Of a stretch of 36,208 nucleotides of DNA, positions 543 through 36,208 are shown in pieces. Under the pieces are notes generated by a model. That model ran no database searches and had not been told where the DNA came from. It saw only the letters and a list, made by a program, of their open reading frames with translations. The position numbers and the translations under genes are program-made. How positions within the stretch are numbered: the first letter of the stretch is position 1; each line of letters starts with the position of its first letter. This DNA is from a virus: IMG/VR virus record IMGVR_UViG_3300046660_000306; one strand, 5' to 3'.

Positions 543-3350
543 TCAGGCCTGAAAAATCCAGCACTTCACGATGGGTTGCTTGGTGACGACAGCGTTAGAG
601 TGCTTGGCCTGGTGGGCACGCACCGCGCTGTCAGTGGCCTTGTTCGTGTCGATCAATTTTCGAGAGCGGGAATCTTTCAGGCGCTCTCTCAATTCGCCGA
701 TATCGGCAACCTTCTGGCGGTGCTCGGCCGCGCACTTAACGAAGTCGTTGAGGTTGATGGCAATGGTGTTGTCTTTCTTGCTGTGATTGACCACCGGGCC
801 GTCAGCGTCCAGACCTTCGAGGTACTCGTACACTTCCCAGAATTCAGCCACCACCGGATGATCCGAGCTGATCGAGGCCTGACGCTCGATGGCCATACGG
901 ATGATTTGAGTGCGGGTGTGGCTGATTTGCGGCTCGCTGAGAGGCAGGACCAGGCGCAAGCAATCGAGCAGGGCGAGCAGCTGGGCGTGGTTCTTGTTGA
1001 TCCGCTCCACACGGATGTAGCCGCGTAGCTTGTTACCGCAGTGGGCACAGTGGTCGTGCTCATTTTTGAATGGCGTTTCGCACGCGAAGCAGTGGCTGTG
1101 AAGGGTGCGCAGTTTTGCTTCGTAACCAGGCACACGACTGGCGAACAGCTCCATCACTTCTGACTCTTTGCGTACTGCTTGCAGCAGGAAGTTGCTGAGC
1201 TTTGCGCCCTCCAAAGAATTGAGCAGGTCCGCTGCTGCGCGGCTTTCAGCAGTCACGGTTGGCCGCATAAAATGCAATTTCACAATCCGGGTCATGATCG
1301 CCTCGGACGCAACAACTGGGGCGTTCTGACTGATCGCAATGGTGGCGCGGAAGGGCGGCTCGTAGGTTTCGTTGCCAGCGGTTTTGACACCCTTGGTCGC
1401 GAGTGTGCCGCCGCCGTAGTAGTCCTTCAGCTCGTCCCATTCGAACGTTTTGGCGTGCGCCTTATCGTCGCCGCTGCGATCCGATTCCAGCAGCACGACG
1501 GGCATGCCAGAGATTTGACCCATCAAGCGGCTACGGCCGGCTTTGGTGGATTTGGATGGGTCGAAGCCTTCGTATCCTTCGCGGCCCAGCAATTTCCACA
1601 GCAAGGTGAGCAGGGTGGTTTTGCCGGCACCGGCTTCGCCTGTTGCTTCCAGGAAGGGAAACGATTGGTACCGGGCGCGAATCTGCTCGGCGAACAGCGA
1701 GCCAAACCAGAAGGTCAGCGCAACGGTGCCCTGGGCGCCAAAGCACTGCCAGAGCAAATTCAACCACTGTGGGTCGTAGTCCTTGGCGTCCTTCTGCAGG
1801 GCGATCTTCACGCCTTTTTGCAGGCTCTTGAGTTTCAGCTTGCCCATCTCGAAGAATTCCTCTTCGTTGATGGTGATGAGCTGGCCTTCCCGGATAGCGA
1901 TGTCGTTGAACACGTAGCAGCCGTACTCCCTGCTGTAGCCGACGTAGTCGATGGTTTGAACGGTTTTGATGCCGAAGAGCTGGTCTTTCATGATCTTGTC
2001 CAACTGTTGTCCACTACCGGTGAACACGGCCCCGGCGCCCATGCCGAGAAGTCTTTTTTTGAATTCGCTGGCCGCTGCGACCTGGCCACCGGTGAAGGTG
2101 TTTTTCACCGAGCCGCCGTCGTGGGGGAAGTCGACGCGGAAGAAGTACCAGGACTCGTCGGTGATCTCGTTGCGCTGGAAATACAGTGCCTTGGGGTAGC
2201 AGTTGGCGATCTCGACCACGCAGCCAGACATGCGCAGCGCCTTGGCGCGGCGTGCTTTGTCGTTGAGTTGTTGGTCTTCTTGGTTATCGCTGGCATCCAG
2301 TGCCTGCATGGCGCTGTTGAACTTCGAGATGTCCAACTTCCACCAGTACAGGCGGGAGTCGAAGCCGAAGTGAAACTCTTCGCGCTCGCGCCACTGGTAC
2401 ATCAGCAAGGCTTTCTCCACGGCGCTTTCCGCGATCAGCAGGGCTCCGTGATGCTTGGCGTCGTCCAGCTCTTTGTCGATCCGCTGGGTGCGGGCTTCGA
2501 CGTCATCCATGAATGCCCACCGCTGGTGCAGATCGTTCCAATCGACCTTGCGCGAATCAGGCTGGGGAATCTGCGCCGCGTCGCAAGTGAAGCCAAGGTC
2601 GCGCGCCTGGCGGACCCACATGCGGGTGTATTTGTGCGCACCTGGTTCGTTGTCCAGTGCCCAGATCAGCTTCGGCGTTTTGCCGCCGCGAGCGGTGATC
2701 AGAGCTTTCAGCGACTCCTCTGGATAGGCGTTCGAGGAAAGCGCGGCGACGGCTGGAATGCCGTTCTGTACCAAGGCAATGGCATCGAAGATGCCCTCGA
2801 CGATCCACAGCTCGTCGACCTGCATAAGATCCACGCAGGGAGGCACCCACCAATAACCCTTGTAGCTTTCGCCAGGTTTGAAACGAGCCTTCTTCTTGCC
2901 GAAGCGATTCGGCTTGTCGATCAGCCGCTCCCAATAGCCACCCTTTTCGAGTGGAAAGCGAACGGTGGCCGAGCCAATGTTAAGCTCGCGATCAAAGTAG
3001 TTTTCCTGGGTGTACCAGCCTTCGATCATCCCCACGTCGAATCCACGGGCGAAGGTCAGATAGGCTTTGGCGCTCGCTGCGGGTTGATCGTCGGTGGCAG
3101 GGGCTCGCTTGCTCCAGTCGTCGAACAGGTCGCTGTACAGCTCCTTGACCGGTTCCATGTAGCGGCATTTCTGCTCGCGGCCGCAGCGGATGAACCATGG
3201 CTCGTCGTAGCGGGAAAACAGCCGCCGCTGGTTGCACTGCGGGCAAGTCCCCTTGCGCATGTATTGGGTGCCGGCCATATGCTGCAGGCCAAAGTCGGAC
3301 TCGAGCCGCTGCAATACGTCAGCGCGCAATTGGTGGTCCATGGTCTTCAC
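543..3350 (-). CDS. Replication primase-helicase: N-terminal zinc finger, Toprim domain, P-loop NTPase, and C-terminal zinc ribbon / DNA-binding region (P4 alpha-like architecture)
   Basis: CPQC...C..KC near the N-terminus. Toprim-like WIVEGIFDAIAL and ALDNEPGA. Walker A GEAGAGKTT. CFAC...CAHC ribbon. 935 aa, the largest early gene. Confidence 0.8.
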   Translation of the reverse strand: MKTMDHQLRADVLQRLESDFGLQHMAGTQYMRKGTCPQCNQRRLFSRYDEPWFIRCGREQKCRYMEPVKELYSDLFDDWSKRAPATDDQPAASAKAYLTFARGFDVGMIEGWYTQENYFDRELNIGSATVRFPLEKGGYWERLIDKPNRFGKKKARFKPGESYKGYWWVPPCVDLMQVDELWIVEGIFDAIALVQNGIPAVAALSSNAYPEESLKALITARGGKTPKLIWALDNEPGAHKYTRMWVRQARDLGFTCDAAQIPQPDSRKVDWNDLHQRWAFMDDVEARTQRIDKELDDAKHHGALLIAESAVEKALLMYQWREREEFHFGFDSRLYWWKLDISKFNSAMQALDASDNQEDQQLNDKARRAKALRMSGCVVEIANCYPKALYFQRNEITDESWYFFRVDFPHDGGSVKNTFTGGQVAAASEFKKRLLGMGAGAVFTGSGQQLDKIMKDQLFGIKTVQTIDYVGYSREYGCYVFNDIAIREGQLITINEEEFFEMGKLKLKSLQKGVKIALQKDAKDYDPQWLNLLWQCFGAQGTVALTFWFGSLFAEQIRARYQSFPFLEATGEAGAGKTTLLTLLWKLLGREGYEGFDPSKSTKAGRSRLMGQISGMPVVLLESDRSGDDKAHAKTFEWDELKDYYGGGTLATKGVKTAGNETYEPPFRATIAISQNAPVVASEAIMTRIVKLHFMRPTVTAESRAAADLLNSLEGAKLSNFLLQAVRKESEVMELFASRVPGYEAKLRTLHSHCFACETPFKNEHDHCAHCGNKLRGYIRVERINKNHAQLLALLDCLRLVLPLSEPQISHTRTQIIRMAIERQASISSDHPVVAEFWEVYEYLEGLDADGPVVNHSKKDNTIAINLNDFVKCAAEHRQKVADIGELRERLKDSRSRKLIDTNKATDSAVRAHQAKHSNAVVTKQPIVKCWIFQA

Positions 3351-24552: not shown

Positions 24553-26310
24553 ATGAATGAAGCCGCTCACCCACCGATGGATACTCGCCGCCAGGCCAAG
24601 TTTTTGTACTGGACGGGTTGGCGCGTCACCGATATTGCCGACTTCCTGAGCGAGAAAGAGAAAACCATCCACTCCTGGAAGGCCCGCGACGACTGGGACC
24701 GGGCCGACAACGTCGAGCGCATTGGCGGCGCGTTGGAAGCCCGCTTGGTGCAACTGATCCTCAAGGAGGGCAAGTCCGGGGGCGACTTCAAGGAAATCGA
24801 TCTACTGCACCGGCAACTGGAGCGGCAGGCACGCATTCAGCGCTTCCAGGGTGGCGGGACCGAAACCGACCTCAATCCGAAGTTGGCCGCGCGCAACGCT
24901 GAACCGAAGAAACAACCCAAGCGTAACGACTTCTCCGAAGAAGACTTCGAGAAGTTGGAAGAGGCCTTTCGAGACGGTTGCTTTGAGTACCAGCTTGACT
25001 GGTACCGGTCGATGAACCAGCGCACCCGGATGCTGCTCAAGAGTCGGCAGATCGGGGCGACCTACTACTTCGCCCGTGAGGCCCTGATCGATGCGCTCAA
25101 GACCGGGCGGAACCAGATTTTTCTGTCCGCCAGCAAGGCTCAGGCCCACCAGTTCAAGAACTATATGCAGGCATTCGTCAGCGATGTGTTGGGCCGACAG
25201 CTGACGGGTGATCCGATCGTGCTGGCCAATGGCGCCGAGCTCCATTTTCTCGGGACCAACTACCGCACGGCGCAGGGCCGATCGGGCAACTTCTACTTTG
25301 ACGAATTCTTCTGGACCCACAAATTCGAGGAGCTCAACAAAGTCGCCTCGGGCATGGCGCTGCACAAGCACTGGCGCAAAACTTACTTTTCGACGCCTTC
25401 GAGCATGGCCCATGAAGCGTACAAGCTATGGACCGGCGAGCGTTTCAACAAGGGCAAACCGACCGCCCAACATCTCAAGCTGGATGTGAGCCACGACGCC
25501 TTGGGCCAGGGCCGGCTGTGCGAGGACCGTATCTGGCGCCAGATCGTTACGATCCTCGATGCCGAGCAACGTGGCTGCGATCTGTTCGACCTGGAAGAGC
25601 TGCGCTTCGAGTACAACCCCGAGCAATTCGCCAATTTGCTGATGTGCCAGTTTGTCGACGACGGCGCCTCGATCTTCCCGCTGCAAATGCTCCAGCCATG
25701 CATGGTCGATAGCTGGGTGGAGTGGGGCGAGGATTACAAACCGTTCGCCGCACGTCCCTTTGGCGATCGGCAGGTCTGGGTCGGCTACGACCCGGCCGAA
25801 ACCGGCGACAGCGCTGGGCTGATTGTCGTGGCGCCGCCGCTGGTACCGGGCGGCAAGTTCCGCGTGCTTGAGCGTCATCAGTTCCGGGGCATGGACTTCG
25901 CGGCGCAGGCTGAGGCCATCCGCCAGGTGACCAAACGCTACTGGGTGACCTACATCGGCGTCGACGTTACCGGTCTGGGCAGCGGCGTGGCCCAGCTGGT
26001 GCGCCAGTTCTTCCCGGCCGTCACCACGTTCAGTTACTCGCCCGAAGTGAAAACTCGTCTGGTGCTCAAGGCATACGACGTGATCAAGAACGGACGCCTG
26101 GAATTCGATGCCGGCTGGACCGATATGGCCTCCAGCCTGATGGCCATCCGCAAGACCATCACCGCCTCAGGGCGGCAGTTCACTTATACGGCCGGACGTA
26201 ATGACGAAACCGGTCACGCCGACTTGGCGTGGGCATTGTTCCACGCCCTGCACAACGAGCCGCTGGAAGGGCAGACCGCTGCCAACACCGGCATCATGGA
26301 GATTTGTTGA
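24553..26310 (+). CDS. P: Terminase large (ATPase) subunit P (P2 gpP)
   Basis: 585 aa. RQIGATYYFAREAL..A...G.NQIFLSASKAQA. Divergent from O as in P2. An alternative ATG at 24577 is possible. Confidence 0.9.
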   Translation: MNEAAHPPMDTRRQAKFLYWTGWRVTDIADFLSEKEKTIHSWKARDDWDRADNVERIGGALEARLVQLILKEGKSGGDFKEIDLLHRQLERQARIQRFQGGGTETDLNPKLAARNAEPKKQPKRNDFSEEDFEKLEEAFRDGCFEYQLDWYRSMNQRTRMLLKSRQIGATYYFAREALIDALKTGRNQIFLSASKAQAHQFKNYMQAFVSDVLGRQLTGDPIVLANGAELHFLGTNYRTAQGRSGNFYFDEFFWTHKFEELNKVASGMALHKHWRKTYFSTPSSMAHEAYKLWTGERFNKGKPTAQHLKLDVSHDALGQGRLCEDRIWRQIVTILDAEQRGCDLFDLEELRFEYNPEQFANLLMCQFVDDGASIFPLQMLQPCMVDSWVEWGEDYKPFAARPFGDRQVWVGYDPAETGDSAGLIVVAPPLVPGGKFRVLERHQFRGMDFAAQAEAIRQVTKRYWVTYIGVDVTGLGSGVAQLVRQFFPAVTTFSYSPEVKTRLVLKAYDVIKNGRLEFDAGWTDMASSLMAIRKTITASGRQFTYTAGRNDETGHADLAWALFHALHNEPLEGQTAANTGIMEIC

Positions 26311-27317
26311 TGACTACTGATCTGGTTGAGGCGCTGCCTGTGCAGAGTCAGGCCCATGCATTTACCTTCGGTGATCCGGTACCGGTGCTCGATGGCCGCG
26401 AGATCCTCGACTATCTGGAATGTTGGTCGAACGGGCGCTGGTACGAGCCGCCGCTGTCGCTGGATGGCTTGGCCAAGTCGACCCGGGCCAGTGTGTACCT
26501 GCAATCGGGTCTGAACTTCAAACGTAATGCGCTGGCCCGGACTTTCATTCCGCACAAATTGCTGAGCCGCCAGGCCTTCGAGCAGGTTGCCCTCGATTTC
26601 ATATGGTGTGGCAACACCTATCTGGAGAAACGCGACAACATGCTGCGTCAGGCGCTGGGGCTGTTGCCGGCGATGGCTAAGTTCGTGCGTCGTGGCATCG
26701 AGGAGGGGAGTTACTTCCAGGTGCGAGGTTGGCGCGACGAACACGAATTTCGCAAAGACAGCATCTGCCATTTGCGGGAGGCTGATATTAATCAGGAGAT
26801 CTACGGATTACCTGAGTGGCTGTCTGCACTGCAGAGCGCGCTGTTGAACGAGGCGGCGACTTTGTTCCGGCGCAAGTATTACCAGAACGGCAGTCATGCC
26901 GGCTTCATTCTGTACATGACCGACGCGGCACAGAACGAGGACTTCGTTACAGATCTGCGTAGCGCCATGAAGAGCAGCAAAGGCCCGGGCAACTTCCGCA
27001 ACCTTTTCATGTACGCACCTGGTGGGAAGAAAGACGGCATCCAGCTGATCCCCATCAGCGAGGTTGCGGCCAAGGATGACTTCGGCTCGATTAAAAACAT
27101 AAGTCGCGACGATCTGCTCGCGGCCTTACGTATTTATCCTCAACTGATGGGTATCGTGCCGCAGAACTCGGGGGGCTTTGGTTCGATGCGCGAAGCCGCC
27201 CAGGTCTGGGGGTTGAATGAACTGGAGCCGCTGCAGGCGCGCTTGCTGCAAATCAACGAATGGCTGGGCGAGGAGGTTATTCGCTTCAAGCCGTTTGAGT
27301 TAACGGCAGGGGGCTAA
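26310..27317 (+). CDS. Q: Portal protein Q (P2 gpQ)
   Basis: The ATG overlaps the P stop (TGATG). 335 aa starting MTTDLVEALPVQSQAHAFTFGDP. Confidence 0.9.
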   Translation: MTTDLVEALPVQSQAHAFTFGDPVPVLDGREILDYLECWSNGRWYEPPLSLDGLAKSTRASVYLQSGLNFKRNALARTFIPHKLLSRQAFEQVALDFIWCGNTYLEKRDNMLRQALGLLPAMAKFVRRGIEEGSYFQVRGWRDEHEFRKDSICHLREADINQEIYGLPEWLSALQSALLNEAATLFRRKYYQNGSHAGFILYMTDAAQNEDFVTDLRSAMKSSKGPGNFRNLFMYAPGGKKDGIQLIPISEVAAKDDFGSIKNISRDDLLAALRIYPQLMGIVPQNSGGFGSMREAAQVWGLNELEPLQARLLQINEWLGEEVIRFKPFELTAGG

Positions 27318-27327
27318 TCCCGATCCC

Positions 27328-27361
27328 AAAAAAAAGGCCAAGCATTGTGCTTGGCCTTTTT
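27328..27361. terminator. Bidirectional rho-independent terminator between Q (+) and the orphan gene (-)
   Basis: An A8 run, stem ggccaagc / gcttggcc (27336-27356), loop attgt, then a T5 run. Confidence 0.85.
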
Positions 27362-27371
27362 ATTAGGTGGA

Positions 27372-28031
27372 TCAATTCTGGATCTGAACATCTACGAGCA
27401 AATCTTTCGGCAGCTCGACCTTGGAAATCAGTGCGAGGTGGTATTCCTGCCCATCCTCTTCTGACCAAAGCTTATCCTCCAGTTCGTTGAGTGCTTCTTG
27501 ATCGTTGATTGGATCAAGTGTGGCATCCATCATCTGGTAGTAATAAACCTTAAGATCCAGAGCCAGAGCCCTGGACATCAGGCGTTGCCAGAAGAATTTC
27601 CCTTCATTTGTCTGATGATTATCAGACAGGATGACGTCGTAGCGCTCAAGAATGTAATTGAAGAACACATCCTGAGCGAGGTCACGCAACACCAGCTTAT
27701 GGGCGTCAGCTTGCGAACGCCACACAAGCATCTGCGTAGCCGGACGGCAATTCAAATCATGAATGGAAGAAACCATCACGCGGTTGAAATAGACCACGGA
27801 TTTTTCTACATCATTCAGCAGTGCAACATCGAATTCATGCACGTCGGGGGTTAACGCATCAATCCTCAATAGCCTGTAGCCAGGCGGAAGCGTATGCCTC
27901 GCTGCAGCGCTGATCTCAGTGAGATTCTCCGCAGTAGCGATTCGCTGATACAGGTGTGCATTGTCCGCCGTCCGCACCAAATGGGCGAATTCTTGACGAA
28001 TTACAGCTGGTCTAACGATCAGTTTAGGCAT
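27372..28031 (-). CDS. Orphan 219-aa protein of unknown function, located between portal and cos (cargo position). A TTG start at 28040 is possible.
   Basis: Long ORF in visibly AT-richer DNA than the flanking late genes. Convergent with Q. I recognise no motif. Confidence 0.7.
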   Translation of the reverse strand: MPKLIVRPAVIRQEFAHLVRTADNAHLYQRIATAENLTEISAAARHTLPPGYRLLRIDALTPDVHEFDVALLNDVEKSVVYFNRVMVSSIHDLNCRPATQMLVWRSQADAHKLVLRDLAQDVFFNYILERYDVILSDNHQTNEGKFFWQRLMSRALALDLKVYYYQMMDATLDPINDQEALNELEDKLWSEEDGQEYHLALISKVELPKDLLVDVQIQN

Positions 28032-28110
28032 GGCAACCAAGACATATGAGTGTCTAACGAAGATAAGTACGTAGAAAACGTGTGATAACTATATCAAGAG
28101 TCGCCCACAT

Positions 28111-28150
28111 ACCACAAGGATTCACAAGACTCCACAAGGGGTCACAAGGG
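28111..28150. repeat. Four tandem helically phased 10-bp repeats, nYCACAAGrn
   Basis: accacaagga ttcacaagac tccacaaggg gtcacaaggg. CACAAG occurs at 28113, 28123, 28133 and 28143. Confidence 0.85.
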
Positions 28151-28341
28151 TTCTAAATGTTGGGGCGGCCTTGCCTCAAGAGGTTGTCCTCACTATCGCC
28201 AGCATCGCAGCCTGTCTCTGTTAAGCCGCTAGCACCTGCCTCGATACCCTTTGATCTGTTCAATACACGCAGCGTCAACGACGTTGCACCGATGTGGTGC
28301 GACAAATGAGCGATGAAGTGTCTCTTCACTTGGCGCGCGCC

Positions 28342-28360
28342 GTCGTCCCCCCGCCACGCC
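28342..28360 (-). other. Candidate cos (cohesive end) sequence
   Basis: The minus strand reads GGCGTGGCGGGGGGACGAC. Its first 12 nt equal the 186 cohesive end GGCGTGGCGGGG as I remember it (P2: GGCGAGGCGGGGAAAGCAC). Orientation relative to Q matches P2. Confidence 0.55.
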
Positions 28361-28440
28361 TGCGGGCTAAATGTGTCGTTTTTTCTGCACCCCTGCACCC
28401 AGTTCAAGCCGGCCCAGCCCGGGGCTGTGTGCGTGAATAT

Positions 28441-28450
28441 GGGGGGGGGG
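28441..28450 (+). repeat. G10 homopolymer inside a G/T-rich strand-asymmetric tract (about 28390-28610)
   Basis: atat-gggggggggg-aagcc. Further G6 runs lie at about 28523 and 28577. Confidence 0.9.
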
Positions 28451-28505
28451 AAGCCTGCGAATCCCTGCGAGGGTGGGGTAATTCTGAGAGGTGGCTCGGG
28501 AAAAG

Positions 28506-28776
28506 GGTTAGTTTTTGAAAATGGGGGGAGAGGTGCTTTGCAAGTCCCGTGTTTACTGGGTTTGAGTCCTAACTTTGGGGGGTTAGTTATGGTTAGGTTT
28601 GAGGTAAGTAGTTCGTAAAATATTGATTTATAAGGGTTTTATTTATTGGTTTTTTAACGGTTATAAAGGTTAGGAAATTACCTCTCATAACCCTAAAGCT
28701 AACCTAGGGTACCCACCGCAAAGCCGCGCAGTACAAGCCTTTCAGAGCGATTAGCAAAAAACTAACCTTCCTAACC
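28506..28776. repeat. Iteron array: GGTTAG x4 (28506, 28581, 28591, 28668; plus GGTTAT at 28659) facing CTAACC x3 (28699, 28762, 28771; plus ATAACC at 28687), around an AT-rich core (28611-28660). Candidate replication origin.
   Basis: Hexamers counted by eye. Seven exact copies in 270 bp, with the orientation switching across gtaaaatattgatttataagggttttatttattggtttttt. No credible ORF. Confidence 0.5.
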
Positions 28777-28847
28777 TCTTTCCCGTGGGTCAACATGAAA
28801 AGCCGAAAGCACCTAGGGGGTGGGTGCTGGCAAAGGTCCATCTGATG

Positions 28848-28871
28848 TTGTGCATGCGCGCTGATGCACAA
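28848..28871. repeat. Inverted repeat ttgtgcat-N8-atgcacaa
   Basis: Perfect 8-bp arms read directly. Function unknown. Confidence 0.6.
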
Positions 28872-28890
28872 ACACTCCCAGGATTACAGT

Positions 28891-28914
28891 AACTGTCACC
28901 AAAACTGTCACCAG
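28891..28914. repeat. Tandem 12-bp repeat x2 (aactgtcaccaa / aactgtcaccag), arm-site-like, 46 bp from the att-like core A
   Basis: Same copy number, unit length and offset from the tRNA 3' end as the aaacggccccca x2 repeat beside the int-proximal attP. Confidence 0.6.
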
Positions 28915-28938
28915 CTCTGTGTCGCGTCGACTTGATAC

Positions 28939-29013
28939 CGCTGGAAGCCTTAAAAATAGTGGAGCGGGTGAATGGAATTGAACCCTCGTATCAGCTTGGA
29001 AAGCTTGTGTCGG
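28939..29013 (-). other. att-like site A: a diverged 3' fragment of a tRNA-Gly (UCC-type anticodon loop, degenerate T-stem) plus about 20 nt of shared flank
   Basis: Minus strand: ...caagctTTCCAAgctgatacgagggttcaattccattcacccgctcca. About 67/75 identical to 30258-30332. Confidence 0.7.
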
Positions 29014-29025
29014 TAGTGCTCGAAT

Positions 29026-29472
29026 TTACAAAAGACGAGGTTGGTGGAAATTGGTAGGGCCTTGGTACGCCGGTGCAGGAGTAGCAGGCACGGCCATCCC
29101 ATTGATCCGGATTAACATAGGGGTCAGCGCTCTGTTCTGAAAAACAGTGTGATTTTTACCCCAGTGGACGCTGATAACCCTCGGCTGGATTGATGTTCCA
29201 GCTTTAGGGAGGCCGTTTGGAACAACAGTTGTCGTACCGCTCGCCGTATATACCAATACCCAGTCGCCAACATTCACAAAGCCATGCCCAAACCACAGCA
29301 TGTGATCTCGTATTGGAGAAGTGGTGCCATCCACCGATGGCAATCCGAGAAAGAGGCAATACTCCCCTAGATCACAGGGCGCCTTAACATAGATTGCTAT
29401 GCGTTCGAGGTTAGGCACCCCATGATCAAACACATCCACGATCTGTAGATTTTCTATGGTGCCAATGCCCAT
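29026..29472 (-). CDS. Cassette gene 2: 148-aa soluble, apparently beta-rich protein of unknown function
   Basis: The ATG overlaps the upstream stop (TAATG). AT-rich. The pattern LQIVDV...ERIAIYV...GEYCLFLG...WFGHGF.NVGDWVLVYT is faintly reminiscent of lamin-tail/immunoglobulin-like sandwich domains, but this is a weak impression only. Confidence 0.7.
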   Translation of the reverse strand: MGIGTIENLQIVDVFDHGVPNLERIAIYVKAPCDLGEYCLFLGLPSVDGTTSPIRDHMLWFGHGFVNVGDWVLVYTASGTTTVVPNGLPKAGTSIQPRVISVHWGKNHTVFQNRALTPMLIRINGMAVPATPAPAYQGPTNFHQPRLL

Positions 29473-29972
29473 TAGCGCTTACCTCGACTGGGAATGAAAT
29501 TAGTCAGTAGCAAAAATGCTGCAAAGCCGAAAATCAGATAAGACGAATTGGGATTGTTCTTATAAACGTCTACGGCTATGGAGAACAAAAACGGGCTAAC
29601 GAAAGTGCATGCTCGTTGAGCAAGACCTAGCCTAAAATTTTGGTGGGATCGTTCCTCAAACCGAACGGTTTTGAGCTTTTCTTCGTTGAGTTCAGCGAGC
29701 GCTTGGTCGAGCTTGGACTGAGTTTCTTCAGCCAGAGCTTTTGCTCGATCCCTTTCGTTTACGAGATCGTTCACCCATGCGTCGAAAATACGAGCGCTTT
29801 GGGCTCCACCAAATTTACTAGGGTTCTCGTTTGCCAGACCTCGGAACGTATTCGGCAAAAGCTCTCCTGTCAGAGGCGGTGCCGTATCCGATTGGATGTC
29901 AGGGGTTCCGACTGTTTGGGTTCCGCTAACGCCGTTATCGTTTGGGTCTGGAGCGTCGCTGATTAGATTCAT
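29472..29972 (-). CDS. Cassette gene 1: 166-aa protein with a disordered N-terminus, a coiled coil and two C-terminal TM helices
   Basis: AGGAA lies 6 nt upstream of the ATG at 29972 (another ATG at 29978). ERDRAKALAEETQSKLDQALAELNEEKLK is the coiled coil. FVSPFLFSIAVDV and YLIFGFAAFLLLTNFI are hydrophobic. Confidence 0.7.
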   Translation of the reverse strand: MNLISDAPDPNDNGVSGTQTVGTPDIQSDTAPPLTGELLPNTFRGLANENPSKFGGAQSARIFDAWVNDLVNERDRAKALAEETQSKLDQALAELNEEKLKTVRFEERSHQNFRLGLAQRACTFVSPFLFSIAVDVYKNNPNSSYLIFGFAAFLLLTNFIPSRGKR

Positions 29973-30089
29973 AGCCATTTCCTGGAATGGTCGATCGTCC
30001 TACAGAGCCTTTCGAACTGAACCGGGAGCCCTAGGTACTTCGCGCCGGTCATGGCCGAATCTTTGTTACGTCACTTATTACGTATTGCG

Positions 30090-30123
30090 GATAAACGAAA
30101 GGCCCGCATTGCTGCGAGCCTTG
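30090..30123 (-). terminator. Hairpin plus T-rich tail directly downstream of the tRNA-Thr fragment (native tRNA terminator remnant)
   Basis: Minus strand aaggctcgc-agcaat-gcgggcctt followed by tcgttt. Confidence 0.5.
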
Positions 30124-30131
30124 GTTTTGTA

Positions 30132-30181
30132 TGGTGCCGGCACCAGGAGTCGAACCTGGGACCTACTGATTACAAGTCAGT
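30132..30181 (-). pseudogene. 3' fragment (anticodon stem to CCA) of a tRNA-Thr(UGU); the 5' half is absent
   Basis: Minus strand ACTGA-CTTGTAA-TCAGT aggtc CCAGG-TTCGACT-CCTGG TGCCGGC A CCA. The upstream sequence has no D-arm or acceptor. Confidence 0.8.
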
Positions 30182-30208
30182 AAGCTTTGCCTGGACATCC
30201 AAACATTG

Positions 30209-30232
30209 AAACGGCCCCCAAAACGGCCCCCA
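30209..30232. repeat. Tandem 12-bp repeat x2 (aaacggccccca): candidate integrase arm-type sites (P' arm)
   Basis: Perfect tandem repeat read directly, 46 bp from the tRNA-Gly 3' end. Confidence 0.65.
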
Positions 30233-30257
30233 ACTGATTGCAGTCAGGTACATGCAT

Positions 30258-30332
30258 CGCTGGAGGCCTTGAAAATAGTGGAGCGGGTGAAGGGAATCGA
30301 ACCCTCGTTATCAGCTTGGGAAGCTTGGGCGG
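30258..30332 (-). other. attP core: 3' portion of tRNA-Gly(CCC) from the anticodon loop to CCA, plus about 20 nt of flank
   Basis: Minus strand ...aagcTTCCCAAgctgataac GAGGG-TTCGATT-CCCTT CACCCGC T CCA. No 5' half. Adjacent to int. Confidence 0.8.
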
Positions 30333-30452
30333 ATGGTGTTTCAGATTGGCACCGGATGTATGCTTGTGTCCTGAAAAGCCCGCTACGACAGGGCTTTCAG
30401 GACAAGCAGCAATTTCAATGTGTTTCATCGGTTCACCCCATATTTCAGACAT

Positions 30453-30474
30453 ACAGCCCCCGGTAACAGCCCCC
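30453..30474. repeat. Direct repeat ACAGCCCCC x2 (30453-30461, 30466-30474): candidate arm-type sites (P arm)
   Basis: Shares GCCCCC with the 30209-30232 repeats and lies on the other side of the core, just before the int ATG. Confidence 0.55.
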
Positions 30475-30476
30475 AA

Positions 30477-31691
30477 ATGCTCACAGAGAAACAGATCAAG
30501 GCAATGAAGCCAGCGGAAAAGGAGTACACGGTCTCGGATGGGCGTACAGCCCGAGGTGAGGGCGTGCTGCTTCTGCGAGTGCGTCCGAACGGGACGAAGG
30601 AGTTCTACTTCCAGCGCTACAGCAGCGGCAAGAAGATCAAGAACAAGCTCGGCACCTGGCCAACGCTCGGTTTAGCTGACGCTCGGGACCTGTGCCGTGC
30701 TGAAAAGGAAGTGGTGGTTGCAGCCGGCACTTTTCAGGAAGTGATGGATGGCTACATCACCAAACTGTCGGGGGAGGGCGCAGCTTCCGTTGAGGATGTG
30801 AAGTGGTCTTTCAAGCACTACGTTTCCGAACCCTTCCCAAACCTGGTAAAGCTTCCGGCGGTTCTGATTGGACCAGGTGAAATACGGGACATCATTGCCA
30901 AGATGATCGCGAATGGTGTGACCACATACTGCAATCGACTGCGATCGCAGCTACACGCGGCTTTCCAGGTTGCCCTAGAGCAGGAGTTCAACCCTCGCAG
31001 TTATCAGAAAGACAATGTGAAGTTTGGGATCAAAAGCAACCCAGTGGCCAGCGTGCCCGTTCAAGCCGACTGGGAACAGCCAGGCGATCGGGCCTTGTCT
31101 GCAGCAGAACTTGCGCACCTCTGGCAAATGTTGCCGGAGCAATTGAGCGTGGTCACGTCAGAGCTGATCAAATTCTTGATCGCGTCAGGTGGGCAACGCC
31201 CGGAACAGCTGCTCGCAACCGAACGCCGGCACTACCTGAAAGATCACCTTATTATTCGCAACAAGAAGGGGCGAGGGGCTGAAGGAGAGCGCTCGTTGCA
31301 CGTCGTACCCTACAACAAATTGATGCGCCAGAGCCTTAAGACCATGGACGAAATCAATGCGATGAGCCTTTACCCTTTCGAGGGAAAAGTGCCGGATAGT
31401 TCGCTGCACGCAAACTCACTCTCCCGTGCAGTGACCAAGCTGTGCAGCCGACATCCAGACAAATTCAATGGCCCCTTTACCATGCGTGATTTGCGACGGA
31501 CCTGCAAAACGTTGATGGGCGCCGCAGGGCTGAACAAAGAGCTTAGAGATCGCATTCAGGGGCATGCGTTTAATGATGTATCTTCAAAGCATTATGATCG
31601 GTATGACTATTTTAAAGAAAAAAAGCACGGTCTGGATCGTTGGGCTATGTGGTTGCAGAAGAATGCTCTAGTAGCTAGTGTGAATATTTAA
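30477..31691 (+). CDS. int: Tyrosine integrase, P4/CP4-57 type (tRNA-targeting)
   Basis: N-terminus LTEKQIKAMKPAEKEYTVSDG...GLLLRVRPNGTKEFYFQRY (arm-binding domain). C-terminus MRDLRRTCKT...IQGHA...HYDRYDY (catalytic R...H-x-x-R...Y). Confidence 0.9.
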   Translation: MLTEKQIKAMKPAEKEYTVSDGRTARGEGVLLLRVRPNGTKEFYFQRYSSGKKIKNKLGTWPTLGLADARDLCRAEKEVVVAAGTFQEVMDGYITKLSGEGAASVEDVKWSFKHYVSEPFPNLVKLPAVLIGPGEIRDIIAKMIANGVTTYCNRLRSQLHAAFQVALEQEFNPRSYQKDNVKFGIKSNPVASVPVQADWEQPGDRALSAAELAHLWQMLPEQLSVVTSELIKFLIASGGQRPEQLLATERRHYLKDHLIIRNKKGRGAEGERSLHVVPYNKLMRQSLKTMDEINAMSLYPFEGKVPDSSLHANSLSRAVTKLCSRHPDKFNGPFTMRDLRRTCKTLMGAAGLNKELRDRIQGHAFNDVSSKHYDRYDYFKEKKHGLDRWAMWLQKNALVASVNI

Positions 31692-31716
31692 CAGTATTTG
31701 TCAGTAAGGGGGACGT

Positions 31717-32598
31717 ATGGTTGCTATTGATAAAGGTGAAGATGTTGATGGTGAGGCGGTGCTGCGCCGATATATGGATTTGGCTAAGTTCGCATCTCTA
31801 TTGCAAAGTCGCTCTATTTTTCATTGTAAAATGAGTGGCTTTGATGATGGGTTGGAAGGTGGCTTAACATCGAATGATTATTTGGCTTTTACGAATGAGT
31901 TGGCTCATTTTGATTTGGCGAGGGAGCTTTGGCCGGTGGTACAAGAAAGCCAAGAGCAGCGCCAAGTAAGGCTGGATAGGGTAGAGCGTATCAGATCTAT
32001 TGTTGATCAAGAAACATTTGAAACTATATTCGGGCCAATGCTAAAAAATGACGCAGTAGAGTATTTTGAGCGGGCCAGACGGTGGGTATATGTAAGCTGC
32101 TGGAACAAGGCTCAGACAGAGTGTGCGGGTATGTGGTCGTTGTATGGGGCAGATAATTCGATCTGTATCTGTACTACTGTTCATCAGGTTGCTAAGAATT
32201 TGCAGTTTGACGGATTAGAAGTTACCAATGCAGTAATGGCTGAGGTGGATTACTTAGATCATGGGGAGGGCTATTTTGCTGATCAAAAACTTGGCGCTTT
32301 TGTTTCAAAGGCTGAGCCATTTGGTTTTGAAAAGGAGGTTAGAATAATAGCTTGGGATGGTTCAAAGAATTATGGAGAGCTGGCTCAGGAAAATCCATGC
32401 GCAGGGTTTTTTAGCCGTGCTTTAGACCTTAATTTAATAATTAATAAAATTGTCGTGTCACCAAAGGCAGATAGTTGGTTTAAAGCGGTGGTGGAAAAAC
32501 TGTGCAATGTGTATGGGTTAAATGTAGCAATCGAACACTCTTCGTTGCTTTCCCCTCGTATCTCACACTTAACTGATACGAGTCTATTTCGCAAATGA
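31717..32598 (+). CDS. DUF2971-like protein (293 aa), AT-rich cargo immediately downstream of int
   Basis: AGGGGGA RBS. N-terminal segment LRRYMDLAKFASLLQSRSIFHCKMSGFDDGLEG, and later WVYVSCWNK...ECAGMWSLYG, match my memory of DUF2971 motifs. Confidence 0.8.
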   Translation: MVAIDKGEDVDGEAVLRRYMDLAKFASLLQSRSIFHCKMSGFDDGLEGGLTSNDYLAFTNELAHFDLARELWPVVQESQEQRQVRLDRVERIRSIVDQETFETIFGPMLKNDAVEYFERARRWVYVSCWNKAQTECAGMWSLYGADNSICICTTVHQVAKNLQFDGLEVTNAVMAEVDYLDHGEGYFADQKLGAFVSKAEPFGFEKEVRIIAWDGSKNYGELAQENPCAGFFSRALDLNLIINKIVVSPKADSWFKAVVEKLCNVYGLNVAIEHSSLLSPRISHLTDTSLFRK

Positions 32599-32611
32599 TC
32601 GGATAGGCCGT

Positions 32612-32782
32612 CTATGCGGCCTCTGTGGTGGTCTGCCATGTTTCGAACGCTGATTCCCGCCAGCCAACGTGTCCGGCAGAAATCACCACGGACTTAGGAA
32701 GCCTATCTCGTTTAATCTTCAGCCAGAGTGTAGTCCGGGAAGGCGAGGTGACGCTCAATACCTCTTTCTCTCCCTGATTCAA
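32612..32782 (-). CDS. AlpA-family (MerR-like HTH) paralogue 1. N-terminally shortened or degenerate, with a possible TTG start coupled to the upstream stop (TTGA).
   Basis: GEKEVLSVTSPSRTTLWLKIKRDRLPKSVVISAGHVGWRESAFETWQ parallels the 33917-34129 protein. No clean ATG or RBS, so it may be a pseudogene. Confidence 0.45.
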   Translation of the reverse strand: MNQGEKEVLSVTSPSRTTLWLKIKRDRLPKSVVISAGHVGWRESAFETWQTTTEAA

Positions 32783-33786
32783 GTGGAGGACGGGGGGGCG
32801 TGTTTTTCCAGTATCCAGTTGGTGAAAGCTATGCGGCATATTTGCTCAATTCCAGAGTTCATATGGTAAGCCTTCCAGTCACTATCAGCCCAGCCTGTCG
32901 GTATATGTTCGCCTAGAAAGAGAGCGCCAGCATGAAGTATTTTTGAGCGCTGGCCATACGCTTTCTTATAGAACTTTATTAGCTCTTCTGAGTCTGAGCT
33001 ATACTTTGTAAGGAAGTCTGTGAATTTTCTTGTGGTGGAGTAGCGTGGCGCACTGCACTCTTTGCATTTCTCAATTTTGATTCCTTTATTGATATGGTCA
33101 ACAAGTGATTCTATTGAGGAAACAAAGCAAGCAAAAGATATGGAGGGTGATATTGGTTTTATTCTTATCGCGTTGTTGAATAAGGTTGCCGATTTCAAAA
33201 AAGCGTTTTTGTTGTCTTGGTCTAGGCTGTAGTAAGCATCCAGAATGTCGCTGAGTAAGTCCGGGACGGAAAAGTCAGAACCGACAAATCTTCCGCCAAG
33301 TCCATAAGATTCAGAAGTGTTGATTTCGTCAACGTTCGAGACTGAAGAGTTTGTAAAGTCGCTGATTTCGTGCTTGTGTTCTTGAACAAAGTAGGAGAGT
33401 TGACGCCACTCTGGTTCTGTTGCAAGGTTGGTATCTGTGCTGATGGTCCAGCTATGGTTGTCTTGTGTATAAACGAACTTTGAAAAAGAGAATACGGCAA
33501 ATAAGCTGGTTATTTCGCGAGTTATTTTTTTCTCATGGTCTTGTCTTTGTATCCAGTCGGGAACCTCTGTTTGGTCAGGCATTTTCTTGCTTGGGTCGGG
33601 GGCGAAGTTGTATTTTACTTCTAGAAGACAAGGGTGGTGCGCCTCAAGATAAGGTGCGCGAGGGAAGTTGTCAGGTGCTGGTAATATCTGAAAAATTTCC
33701 CTGTATTTGTATTTTCCAGTGACGTTGGCATTTGTGAGCATGATAAAACTTCTAAATGTTTTCGTCATAAGTTTGCCTGTTTCCAT
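32779..33786 (-). CDS. 335-aa protein with an unknown N-terminal domain and a C-terminal HEPN-like domain (R-x4-H). The start is uncertain (33786, 33768 or 33741).
   Basis: SSIESLV helix followed by YGQRSKILHAG (R284-x4-H289 of the track ORF, nt 32932-32949). AT-rich (sampled lines about 35-47% GC against more than 60% in the late genes). Confidence 0.75.
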   Translation of the reverse strand: METGKLMTKTFRSFIMLTNANVTGKYKYREIFQILPAPDNFPRAPYLEAHHPCLLEVKYNFAPDPSKKMPDQTEVPDWIQRQDHEKKITREITSLFAVFSFSKFVYTQDNHSWTISTDTNLATEPEWRQLSYFVQEHKHEISDFTNSSVSNVDEINTSESYGLGGRFVGSDFSVPDLLSDILDAYYSLDQDNKNAFLKSATLFNNAIRIKPISPSISFACFVSSIESLVDHINKGIKIEKCKECSAPRYSTTRKFTDFLTKYSSDSEELIKFYKKAYGQRSKILHAGALFLGEHIPTGWADSDWKAYHMNSGIEQICRIAFTNWILEKHAPPSST

Positions 33787-33916
33787 AGGTGTTGGCAAAG
33801 TGGTAGGTTTATTGTTTTGGGCTGGGCCACTCTAACATCCGAATAGCCACCTGTATAAACCGAGAAGCCATACATAGTGTAGCTGCAGTTTGTATCGCAT
33901 AAATAGATGAGGCCGC

Positions 33917-34129
33917 TTACGCGGCCTCGGTGGTGTTAACTTGCCAGTTTTGGGGACTGGCTTGCCATGCTTCGATAGCTGATTCCCTCCAGCCAACCCG
34001 GCCTGCGGAAATCACCACAGACTTTGGAAATCTGCCACGTTTGATCTCCCTCCATAGTGTGGTTCGGGAGAATGAGGTGACGTCCAATACCTCCTTCTCC
34101 CGCATGAACCGATCAAGCTTTCTTGTCAT
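33917..34129 (-). CDS. AlpA-family HTH protein (excisionase / transcriptional regulator type)
   Basis: REKEVLDVTSFSRTTLWREIKRGRFPKSVVISAGRVGWRESAIEAWQ. The ATG overlaps the methyltransferase stop (ATGA). Confidence 0.8.
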   Translation of the reverse strand: MTRKLDRFMREKEVLDVTSFSRTTLWREIKRGRFPKSVVISAGRVGWRESAIEAWQASPQNWQVNTTEAA

Positions 34130-36049: not shown

Positions 36050-36098
36050 GGTTCTCTCCTTTCAGTGGTGGTCGGTGTCGAGGGGTTGCAGCCCCTCG
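36047..36098 (-). repeat. Leader repeat copy 2: hairpin cgagggg-ttgcag-cccctcg (36079-36098) plus the conserved block accactgaaaggagagaaccATGca
   Basis: See 174-213. The hairpin spans the circular junction. Confidence 0.7.
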
Positions 36099-36208
36099 GC
36101 ACCACTTCCCGTTATTCCGTTACTTGGCGAGCCAGATCAGTACGTCTGGTACCTGTAGGGCAGTGACAGCGATCAATGCGACCGTCGCGATTGTGCTGAG
36201 CAGGTTGT
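36082..36208. repeat. Terminal exact direct repeat, copy 2 (duplicate of 1-127)
   Basis: The same 127 nt as the window start. The unit length is therefore 36,081 bp. Confidence 0.9.

Follow-up and report, generated by a model that had tools for sequence, protein, structure and literature searches.

A probable stack of attachment half-sites from three integrase specificities in a circular phiCTX/P2-like Pseudomonas phage genome

The virus record IMGVR_UViG_3300046660_000306 of IMG/VR is a stretch of 36,208 nt, here referred to in its full length as the window, in which three 3′ fragments of tRNA genes lie between the cos region and the integrase gene (int). We refer to these fragments as A, Thr and B and examine them as phage attachment (att) sites. 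Among the closest described systems is the P2-like phage phiCTX, which integrates in a tRNA gene and has the order cos, ctx moron, attP and int; its ctx and cos details were reportedly given by Nakayama et al. in 1999. The window shares with phiCTX the portal and terminase genes by cos, a short interval that bears a moron, and an attP directly beside int, the last being a placement known from both phiCTX and 186 (PMC3931495). On the other hand, phiCTX was described with a single attP, whereas the moron interval of the window adds two half att sites of other specificities, and the integrase of the window differs in having a P4-type arm-binding domain (Arm-DNA-bind_3).

In P2-like phages each arm site consists of two direct repeats (PMC3931495). 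Site B resembles an attP of the lambda/P4 type, with tandem arms on both sides of a tRNA-identical core and an arm-binding integrase adjoining it, whereas A and the Thr site are one-armed and their arms are mismatched to the clade of the resident integrase. Several directly repeated att cores on one molecule are also found in tandem accretion, as in the cis-mobilizable elements (CIMEs) related to ICESt1/ICESt3 and in tandems of phages with integrative and conjugative elements (PMC13651849), and relatives of the window clearly have tandem arrays at one and the same tRNA. In accretion, however, one integrase serves the inner and outer sites, which bound the captured unit, whereas in the window the arm specificity differs from site to site, and A and B do not delimit the blocks that it has in common with relatives.

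Switching of the tRNA target, between tRNA-Thr, tRNA-Lys and tRNA-Asn, has been described in the P2-like Smp131 family (PMC3931495), and some P2-like phages carry integrases of the unrelated lambda type (PMC3448106). The window resembles this family in that closely related structural modules are found with different integrases and tRNA targets. Studies of Smp131 and P2-like phages inferred the switching from comparison of whole phages, whereas the window retains the old half-sites; in a limited literature search, we found no description of stacked old half-sites kept in a free phage genome. The type of site (an arm-core-arm attP at a tRNA 3′ end), the phiCTX-like plan, target switching and accretion are thus all already known, and the feature of the window is an ordinary attP together with unusually well-resolved recombination scars.

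The phage genome and attachment site B

The window is a contig from a metagenome of the Joint Genome Institute (JGI). An exact direct repeat of 127 nt at its two ends (1–127 and 36082–36208) makes it a circular assembly with a unique genome of 36,081 bp, and ARAGORN found no intact tRNA gene in it. Its gene plan is P2/phiCTX-like, with cos adjoining the portal gene, and downstream of cos come, in order, the att-fragment region, the integrase, two AlpA-like genes and a C5 methyltransferase. Since the contig closes on itself, holds no intact tRNA gene and has a P2/phiCTX-like gene set, the window is a complete, free (excised), circular genome of a phiCTX/P2-like Pseudomonas phage. A megablast search of GenBank phages with positions 27000–33000 returned 47-nt tRNA-like matches at most and no close cultured relative; all of the relatives that bear names are from Pseudomonas. 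The comparison set consisted of about 160 related loci, labelled L001 onward.

The three fragments have a common anatomy, with two arm repeats (12-nt period), a spacer of 47–48 nt and a tRNA 3′ core, and each of them represents the “P-arm plus core” half of an attP. None forms a complete cloverleaf. Rfam matched the Thr fragment alone, without a D arm, and at E ≤ 1 reported neither of the two Gly fragments, A and B, which were identified by aligning them with the host tRNA as reconstructed from attL loci.

The arm repeats track the clade of the integrase. Integrase relatives split into Group 1, at least 72% identical to the integrase of the window (Int), and Group 2, about 70% identical to it, and the N-terminal arm-binding domains of the two groups are consistently different. 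All members of Group 1 have ACAGCCCCC or AACGGCCCCC repeats (RGCCCCC-type) just 5′ of the int ATG, as in B, whereas in Group 2 this position holds GAACTGTCACCAcGAACTGTCACCA, the repeat that is found left of A. The tRNA-Gly(CCC) core is common to both groups. Because phage- or island-specific sequence begins at the edge of the anticodon loop in all relatives, strand exchange probably takes place at this loop, which would then be the overlap region. Tyrosine recombinases fail to complete a productive exchange when the overlap regions are mismatched.

Site B has all three parts of an attP. Its P-arm (30210–30231, plus strand) consists of AACGGCCCCC twice with a period of 12 nt (30210–30219 and 30222–30231) and has homologues in the P-arms found at the attL of Group 1 prophages. 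Its core (30279–30325, minus strand) corresponds to positions 28–74 of tRNA-Gly(CCC), matches the host tRNA in 47 of 47 positions and is identical in more than 30 relatives. The P′-arm (30452–30474, plus strand), with TACAGCCCCC at 30452–30461 and AACAGCCCCC at 30465–30474, ends 2 nt before the int ATG and is kept at this position in all Group 1 relatives. The repeats on the right are thus [TA]ACAGCCCCC twice and those on the left AACGGCCCCC twice, so that cognate repeats flank the core on both sides.

The adjoining gene (30477–31691, plus strand) encodes a Group 1 tyrosine integrase with an N-terminal arm-DNA-binding domain. Its start was placed at the ATG at 30477 by homology; the mechanically called open reading frame (ORF) starts at a GTG at 30420. 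Matches were obtained to Pfam Arm-DNA-bind_3 (3.5e-10) and Phage_int_M (5e-4) and to PHROG 1, integrase (4e-35 over residues 19–415), whereas the Pfam model of the catalytic domain stayed below threshold. No second integrase was found when the window was searched for one.

Integrated relatives use sites of the B type. One 37-kb contig, of which L010 and L152 form the opposite ends, has an int and a primase that are 92% and 98% identical, respectively, in amino acids. Host downstream DNA and a truncated core are found at its int end, and at the other end the Group 1 P-arm leads into a complete tRNA-Gly(CCC), with host genes beyond it; this contig is an integrated prophage. Four further loci (L147, L149, L153 and L154) show an attL of the same type with a complete tRNA-Gly(CCC). 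With an adjoining arm-binding integrase, a tRNA-identical core, arms on both sides and attL and attR in integrated relatives, B is, as judged from sequence comparison, the only complete attP (P-arm, core and P′-arm) of the window, cognate to the resident Group 1 Int and directed to tRNA-Gly(CCC). This agrees with the preliminary description of the window, which had taken B, next to int, for the working attP.

A perfect 10-bp inverted repeat (TGTCCTGAAA / TTTCAGGACA, 18-nt loop) lies at 30367–30404, between the B core and the P′-arm repeats, and relatives have an equivalent hairpin of different sequence at this position. Other junctions were seen in a few Group 1 loci. In L007 (1249–1400) and L008 (5764–5915), a partial Group 1 core just upstream of int is separated by about 50 nt from a complete tRNA-Gly(CCC) gene whose sequence differs, a junction that is not seen in the other integrated relatives. 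In L030 (10806–10998), L144 and L150, the core that follows the Group 1 P-arm matches tRNA-Gly through the acceptor and T arm only and continues into a different, structured-looking sequence (GAACCCTTACTCCGAATCTTAGCCTTCCACCC...), in which ARAGORN called no tRNA.

Fragments A and Thr and the cassette between them

The P-arm of fragment A (28891–28912, plus strand) consists of AACTGTCACC twice with a period of 12 nt (28891–28900 and 28903–28912), and these are the only exact copies of AACTGTCACC in the window. Its core (28960–29005, minus strand) corresponds to a decayed tRNA-Gly(CCC), positions 28–74, and matches the host tRNA in 43 of 47 positions, with three substitutions and one deletion; one of the substitutions falls at the centre of the anticodon loop and gives an apparent “UCC”. 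It had been proposed that A is a direct repeat of B that includes about 20 nt beyond the CCA end, with a tandem arm repeat of its own, different from that of B, placed at identical geometry. These points were borne out, with small corrections: A (28939–29008) and B (30258–30328) agree in 64 of 70 columns with one 1-nt gap, and the repeat extends about 21 nt past the CCA end. A repeat search gave 51 nt at 92% plus 30 nt at 80%, at a spacing of 1319–1320. The distance from the second arm repeat to TGG, the complement of the CCA end, is 47 nt in both A (28960) and B (30279).

A is a genuine att-related repeat rather than a chance match. On the other hand, its assignment to a UCC-type tRNA-Gly did not hold, as the “UCC” is a point change in a core derived from tRNA-Gly(CCC). 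An origin of A from tRNA-Gly(UCC) was rejected, since A departs from the CCC core at one base of the anticodon, and its arm geometry and phage-derived 3′ flank are those of CCC-type attPs.

Fragment A appears to be the P half of an attP of the sister Group 2 clade, which also targets tRNA-Gly(CCC), because this half is seen in the complete attPs of L141 and L129 and in Group 2 attL loci. In L141, a metagenome contig, AACTGTCACC twice, a perfect core and AACTGTCACC twice again are followed by a Group 2 int, alpA, a methyltransferase and primase, and the P side is 97% identical to 28891–28959 of the window. The second complete Group 2 attP, in L129, is present at both ends of its contig, and a Group 2 attL whose tRNA is intact was seen in 12 further loci. 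In Group 2 relatives generally, the AACTGTCACC tandem repeat lies 5′ of the int ATG.

Up to about 28951, the left flank of A agrees with the active sites of L141, L143 and L123 at 97–99%, the changes being clustered to the right of this point. Arm and spacer match these three loci in 67–68 of 69 positions, and it is the core that holds most of the differences, a contrast that has the appearance of a recombination breakpoint. Other decayed sites of the A type are found in L126, L136, L137/L038 and L142.

Right of A, no P′-type repeat of the Group 1 or the Group 2 kind was found, so the repeats of A lie on its left only. A has arms of the wrong clade and no P′-arm, and its core is changed at 4 of 47 positions, among them the centre of the anticodon loop. 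That it serves this phage as a second functional att site, as had been suggested, is therefore unlikely, and both A and the Thr site would be inert for the resident integrase. We had also considered the right flank of A (29007–29025) as a remnant of a Group 1 P′-arm, that is, a hybrid junction of tandem prophages. This was dropped, since L156 has a homologous linker between core and cassette; the flank would instead be an old junction of an L156-type lineage.

Between A and B, a tRNA-Thr(UGU) 3′ fragment with its terminator and a two-gene cassette are present, as had been stated. The Thr fragment has arm repeats too, which had been missed before. Its P-arm (30063–30083, plus strand), with TTGTTACGT and TTATTACGT at a period of 12 nt, lies 48 nt from the tRNA end, and TTGTTACGT twice (TTGGTACGT twice in L098) is kept at the same distance in all eight of the eight Thr-type loci compared. 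The core (30132–30181, minus strand) corresponds to positions 27–76 of tRNA-Thr(UGU), matches the tRNA-Thr of L108 in 49 of 50 positions, scores 33.3 bits with the Rfam tRNA model and would be a relic half-site, with repeats on the left only. An intrinsic terminator (30099–30122, minus strand) is kept in Thr-type relatives, including prophages with a complete tRNA-Thr, and in a lysogen it would follow the reconstituted tRNA-Thr. At the position of this site, L049, L050, L070, L108, L110 and L112 have a complete tRNA-Thr, and L106 and L098 have the fragment form; the integrase of L098 shows the same three-domain plan as the resident Int. These comparisons point to the P half of an attP that belongs to a Thr(UGU)-specific integrase clade.

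The cassette consists of two genes on the minus strand, which we refer to as X and Y and which are predicted to be co-transcribed. Y (29026–29472) encodes an all-beta protein of 148 aa with no family match; 29 homologues were found, those named being from Pseudomonas, and its AlphaFold model (pLDDT 82) gave weak Foldseek matches to lamin-tail/Ig-like folds (E ~0.01). X (29472–29978) encodes 168 aa with a disordered N-terminus, a coiled coil and two predicted transmembrane helices. Searches of Pfam, PHROGs and PADLOC were negative for Y and, for X, gave no more than a marginal coiled-coil match (ZorA, 1e-3), and thus no family or defence system for the pair. At Pseudomonas prophage ends (L108, L110 and L112), a complete tRNA-Thr is followed by the terminator, X, Y and the prophage, in a block homologous to 30181–29051 of the window at 67–72%. 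Because this order of tRNA-Thr, terminator, X and Y recurs in Pseudomonas genomes, X-Y would be a moron that travels with the end of Thr-type prophages. As a pseudo-attB we considered a stretch that resembles the Gly core in 14 of 20 positions and lies downstream of Y in prophages free of relics (for example L108); the likeness was too weak and was not used.

Right of the Gly core in L033 (12167–12260), L067, L115, L117, L120, L123, L128, L132, L134 and L139, a palindrome centred on the anticodon loop (CCCTCGTTATCAGCTTGGGAAGCTGATAACGAGGG) is found, followed by unrelated genes. In L033 and L132 the genes past this palindrome are a distantly related X-Y pair, and in L033 a gene for a Fic-domain protein comes next. 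The segments with the palindrome probably mark where another family of islands, placed in tandem at tRNA-Gly(CCC), ends.

Mosaic structure and probable history of the stack

The layers of the window occur separately in other contigs. The A-type arms, Gly core, a linker of about 22 nt, Y, X, Thr arms and Thr core are contiguous in L156–158, at 73.5% identity over 28331–30155. The same order is found in L070, a lysogen in which a complete tRNA occupies the Thr site and B is missing, and L122 has this A-to-Thr frame with a different, single cargo gene. The Thr, X and Y layers without A are found in L108, L110, L112 and L159. The junction between Thr and B (30182–30209), which contains GCCTGGACATCCAAACA, is also found beside decayed Thr relics in L147, L152, L153 and L155, all without A and without X-Y. 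In these four loci, the Thr relic, decayed to a varying degree, is followed by the junction GCCTGGACATC..AAC and the Group 1 P-arm, which in L147, L152 and L153 leads into a complete tRNA-Gly(CCC); L155 ends inside the Gly core.

A segment-by-segment map of the nearest neighbour among the compared loci gave three parts. From the terminase through the A arm the window is L123-like (92–97% identity), the cassette and Thr block are 71–76% identical to any relative found, and the B P′-arm, int and the following gene for a 293-aa protein (p293) are L001-like (89–95%). Because the two-layer stacks, A-cassette-Thr on one side and Thr-B on the other, occur separately in other contigs, we read the window as a mosaic joined at shared half-sites and not as a cassette bounded by A and B. 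The preliminary description had treated the cassette as a unit between these two sites, with a scar of tandem or nested integrations as one explanation. A scar of att-site history the region does appear to be, whereas a unit bounded by A and B it is not. A-Y-X-Thr is found without B in L156–158 and L070, Thr-B without A or cassette in L152, L153, L155 and L147, and Thr-X-Y without A. The comparison of related phages that had been proposed as a check thus returned the cassette-Thr segment without the A repeat (L108, L110, L112 and L159), the very outcome that was to count against the earlier view. Likewise, the A-to-B segment does not behave as a CIME-like unit, as its two sites have no resident integrase in common and relatives do not carry it as a unit between them.

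We therefore favour, with fairly high confidence, a stack of three half-sites from three related integrase specificities, at which A and Thr are relics and B is the working site. The integration module would have been replaced twice, from Group 2-Gly to Thr and then to Group 1-Gly, with the former P-arm and core remaining each time as a scar immediately on the cos side of the incoming module. Perhaps a Group 2 Gly phage gained a Thr-type end with its integrase and left its own P-arm and core behind, and, separately, a Thr-type phage gained a Group 1 Gly module and left the Thr half-site behind. Recombination at the shared Thr half-site, then an exchange at the A half-site with an L123-like phage, would have given the window. 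Such two-layer products may have recombined with each other and with active relatives at shared half-sites. The primary joins lie a few to about 25 nt past each core and could be due to illegitimate recombination, or to nested or tandem integration followed by deletion.

Some points weigh against this stack of relics. The inertness of A towards the resident Int is read from sequence, and we infer both the order and the mechanism of the primary replacement events. Relic A-type arms are kept beside non-cognate DNA, in 22 of 22 positions in L156 and 21 of 22 in L070, with the adjacent DNA at 56–80%. The Gly core adjoins the 3′ end of Y in three diverged lineages (the window and L156; L070; and L033 and L132 with an island-type junction), and this recurrence suggests a joining process that is not random. 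The conservation of the relic arms can be attributed to recent exchange with active sites, which would be a sufficient explanation because near-identity to active sites is seen elsewhere, as between the P side of L070 and the active attL of L119.

The same conserved arms could mean that the half-sites are a selected “multi-key” array, which would allow recombination in trans by Group 2-Gly or Thr-type integrases and offer preferred crossovers for swapping integration and structural modules. We regard this as unlikely, if less so than the other alternatives. The related idea, that the relics are kept as working docking or exchange points for the integrases of co-resident prophages (Group 2 and Thr-type), through piggy-back integration or module exchange, seems improbable to us. 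It is favoured by A-type sites beside non-cognate DNA, at which arms and cores are far better kept than spacer and flanks (arms against spacer, 22/22 and 36/47 in L156, and 21/22 and 29/52 in L070), and by the mapping of recombination breakpoints to half-sites. However, relics do decay, as in A of the window, in L126, L136, L137 and L142, and in the Thr relics of L147, L152, L153 and L155, and the conserved ones are so nearly identical to active sites that recent derivation suffices.

It is quite improbable that the A-to-B segment is an integrase-less, CIME-like island, captured by accretion in tandem at tRNA-Gly(CCC) and co-excised through the outer att sites. Tandem arrays are indeed common at this tRNA, with a P-arm and core followed by another island rather than by the tRNA in L033, L067, L115, L117, L120, L128, L132, L134 and L139, and an X-Y-like pair lies at the core-proximal island end in L033 and L132. 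The X-Y block of the window, however, is a unit homologous to the Thr-type prophage end (72–76% in nucleotides, including the Thr arm and core), whereas its identity to the island copies is only 52% and 33% in amino acids. Moreover, the flanking arms differ in specificity, Group 2 on the left and Group 1 on the right, and A-Y-X-Thr is found without B in the tRNA-Thr-integrated phage of L070.

That A is a functional second site, at which Int together with AlpA would recombine A with B and release the cassette as a circle of about 1.3 kb, or an alternative attP, is very improbable. The 64/70 direct repeats with identical arm-to-core spacing and the intact arm repeats of A would fit such an exchange. 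However, the arms of A belong to the other clade, with its different arm-binding domain, and no cognate integrase is encoded in the window; no P′-type repeat of either kind lies right of A; the four changes in the 47-nt core include the middle of the anticodon loop, the probable overlap region; and the blocks common to relatives do not end at A and B. The loop-out that had been predicted is thus unlikely. Least probable of all is an assembly chimera of two or three co-occurring phages joined at repeated tRNA cores, since, despite the metagenomic source of the contig and the co-occurrence of related phages in similar samples, the repeats are at most 70 nt long and only 91% identical, far below the 127-nt overlap that closes the contig, and the A-to-Y and Thr-to-B junctions recur in independent assemblies from other samples.

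Flanking modules and implications

On the cos side, the large terminase (24553–26310) and portal (26229–27317) genes are on the plus strand, the tail and capsid genes are on the minus strand, and the primase gene (543–3350) is also on the minus strand. The cos region (28325–28397), a block kept in about 40 portal-side relatives, holds the cos-like CGTCGTCCCCCCGCCACGCC, the reverse complement of the P2-family cohesive-end motif, for which the Smp131/P2 cos motif quoted in PMC3931495 served as reference. Between portal and cos, a 222-aa ORF (27372–28040, minus strand) matches PHROG 1349 (unknown function, 1.5e-34). The one counterpart seen in the compared loci is a partial match in L152 (72% over 444 nt), with none in the close relative L123, and this place is a further variable cargo slot. 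Between cos and the A arm, GGTTAG/CTAACC occurs seven times in 270 nt (28506–28776), compared with 14 times genome-wide. At this place other words are repeated in relatives (GGTAAT in L108 and L112; GTGATAT in L110), and all of these could be lineage-specific protein-binding repeats.

Right after int, a 293-aa ORF (31717–32598), whose L001 copy is 90% identical in protein, matches the PADLOC candidate defence family PDC-S31 (8e-12) and PHROG 34615. The two AlpA-like genes follow on the minus strand. The second, alpA2 (33917–34129), encodes an AlpA-family excisionase/regulator (Pfam Phage_AlpA, 1e-13) and is the copy that close relatives also have, with 88–90% nucleotide identity to L010 and L001. 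The first, alpA1 (32612–32839), is a partial, diverged second excisionase-like copy, 78% identical to alpA2 over 137 nt and closest to the alpA of L005, which is of another lineage (85%). Both copies have a terminator-like GGCCG...CGGCC hairpin, and between them lies a low-GC (43–45%) ORF of 339 aa (32779–33798) with no family match. On the far side of int, alpA1 is probably the right-hand scar of the module exchange that also gave the stack, and 32612–34129 as a whole looks like such a scar with a moron insertion.

Three pairings of integrase and arm repeat (AACGGCCCCC, AACTGTCACC and TTGTTACGT) in one geometry would offer a natural set for the study of arm-site specificity and for integrase tools. 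Stacks of this kind also call for caution, as finders of prophage ends or att sites that rely on tRNA fragments may be misled by them into calling internal “islands” that are not mobile. For the phages themselves, the window would record a stepwise switching of integrase and target, from Group 2 at tRNA-Gly through tRNA-Thr to Group 1 at tRNA-Gly, the intermediates of which are still present in public data.

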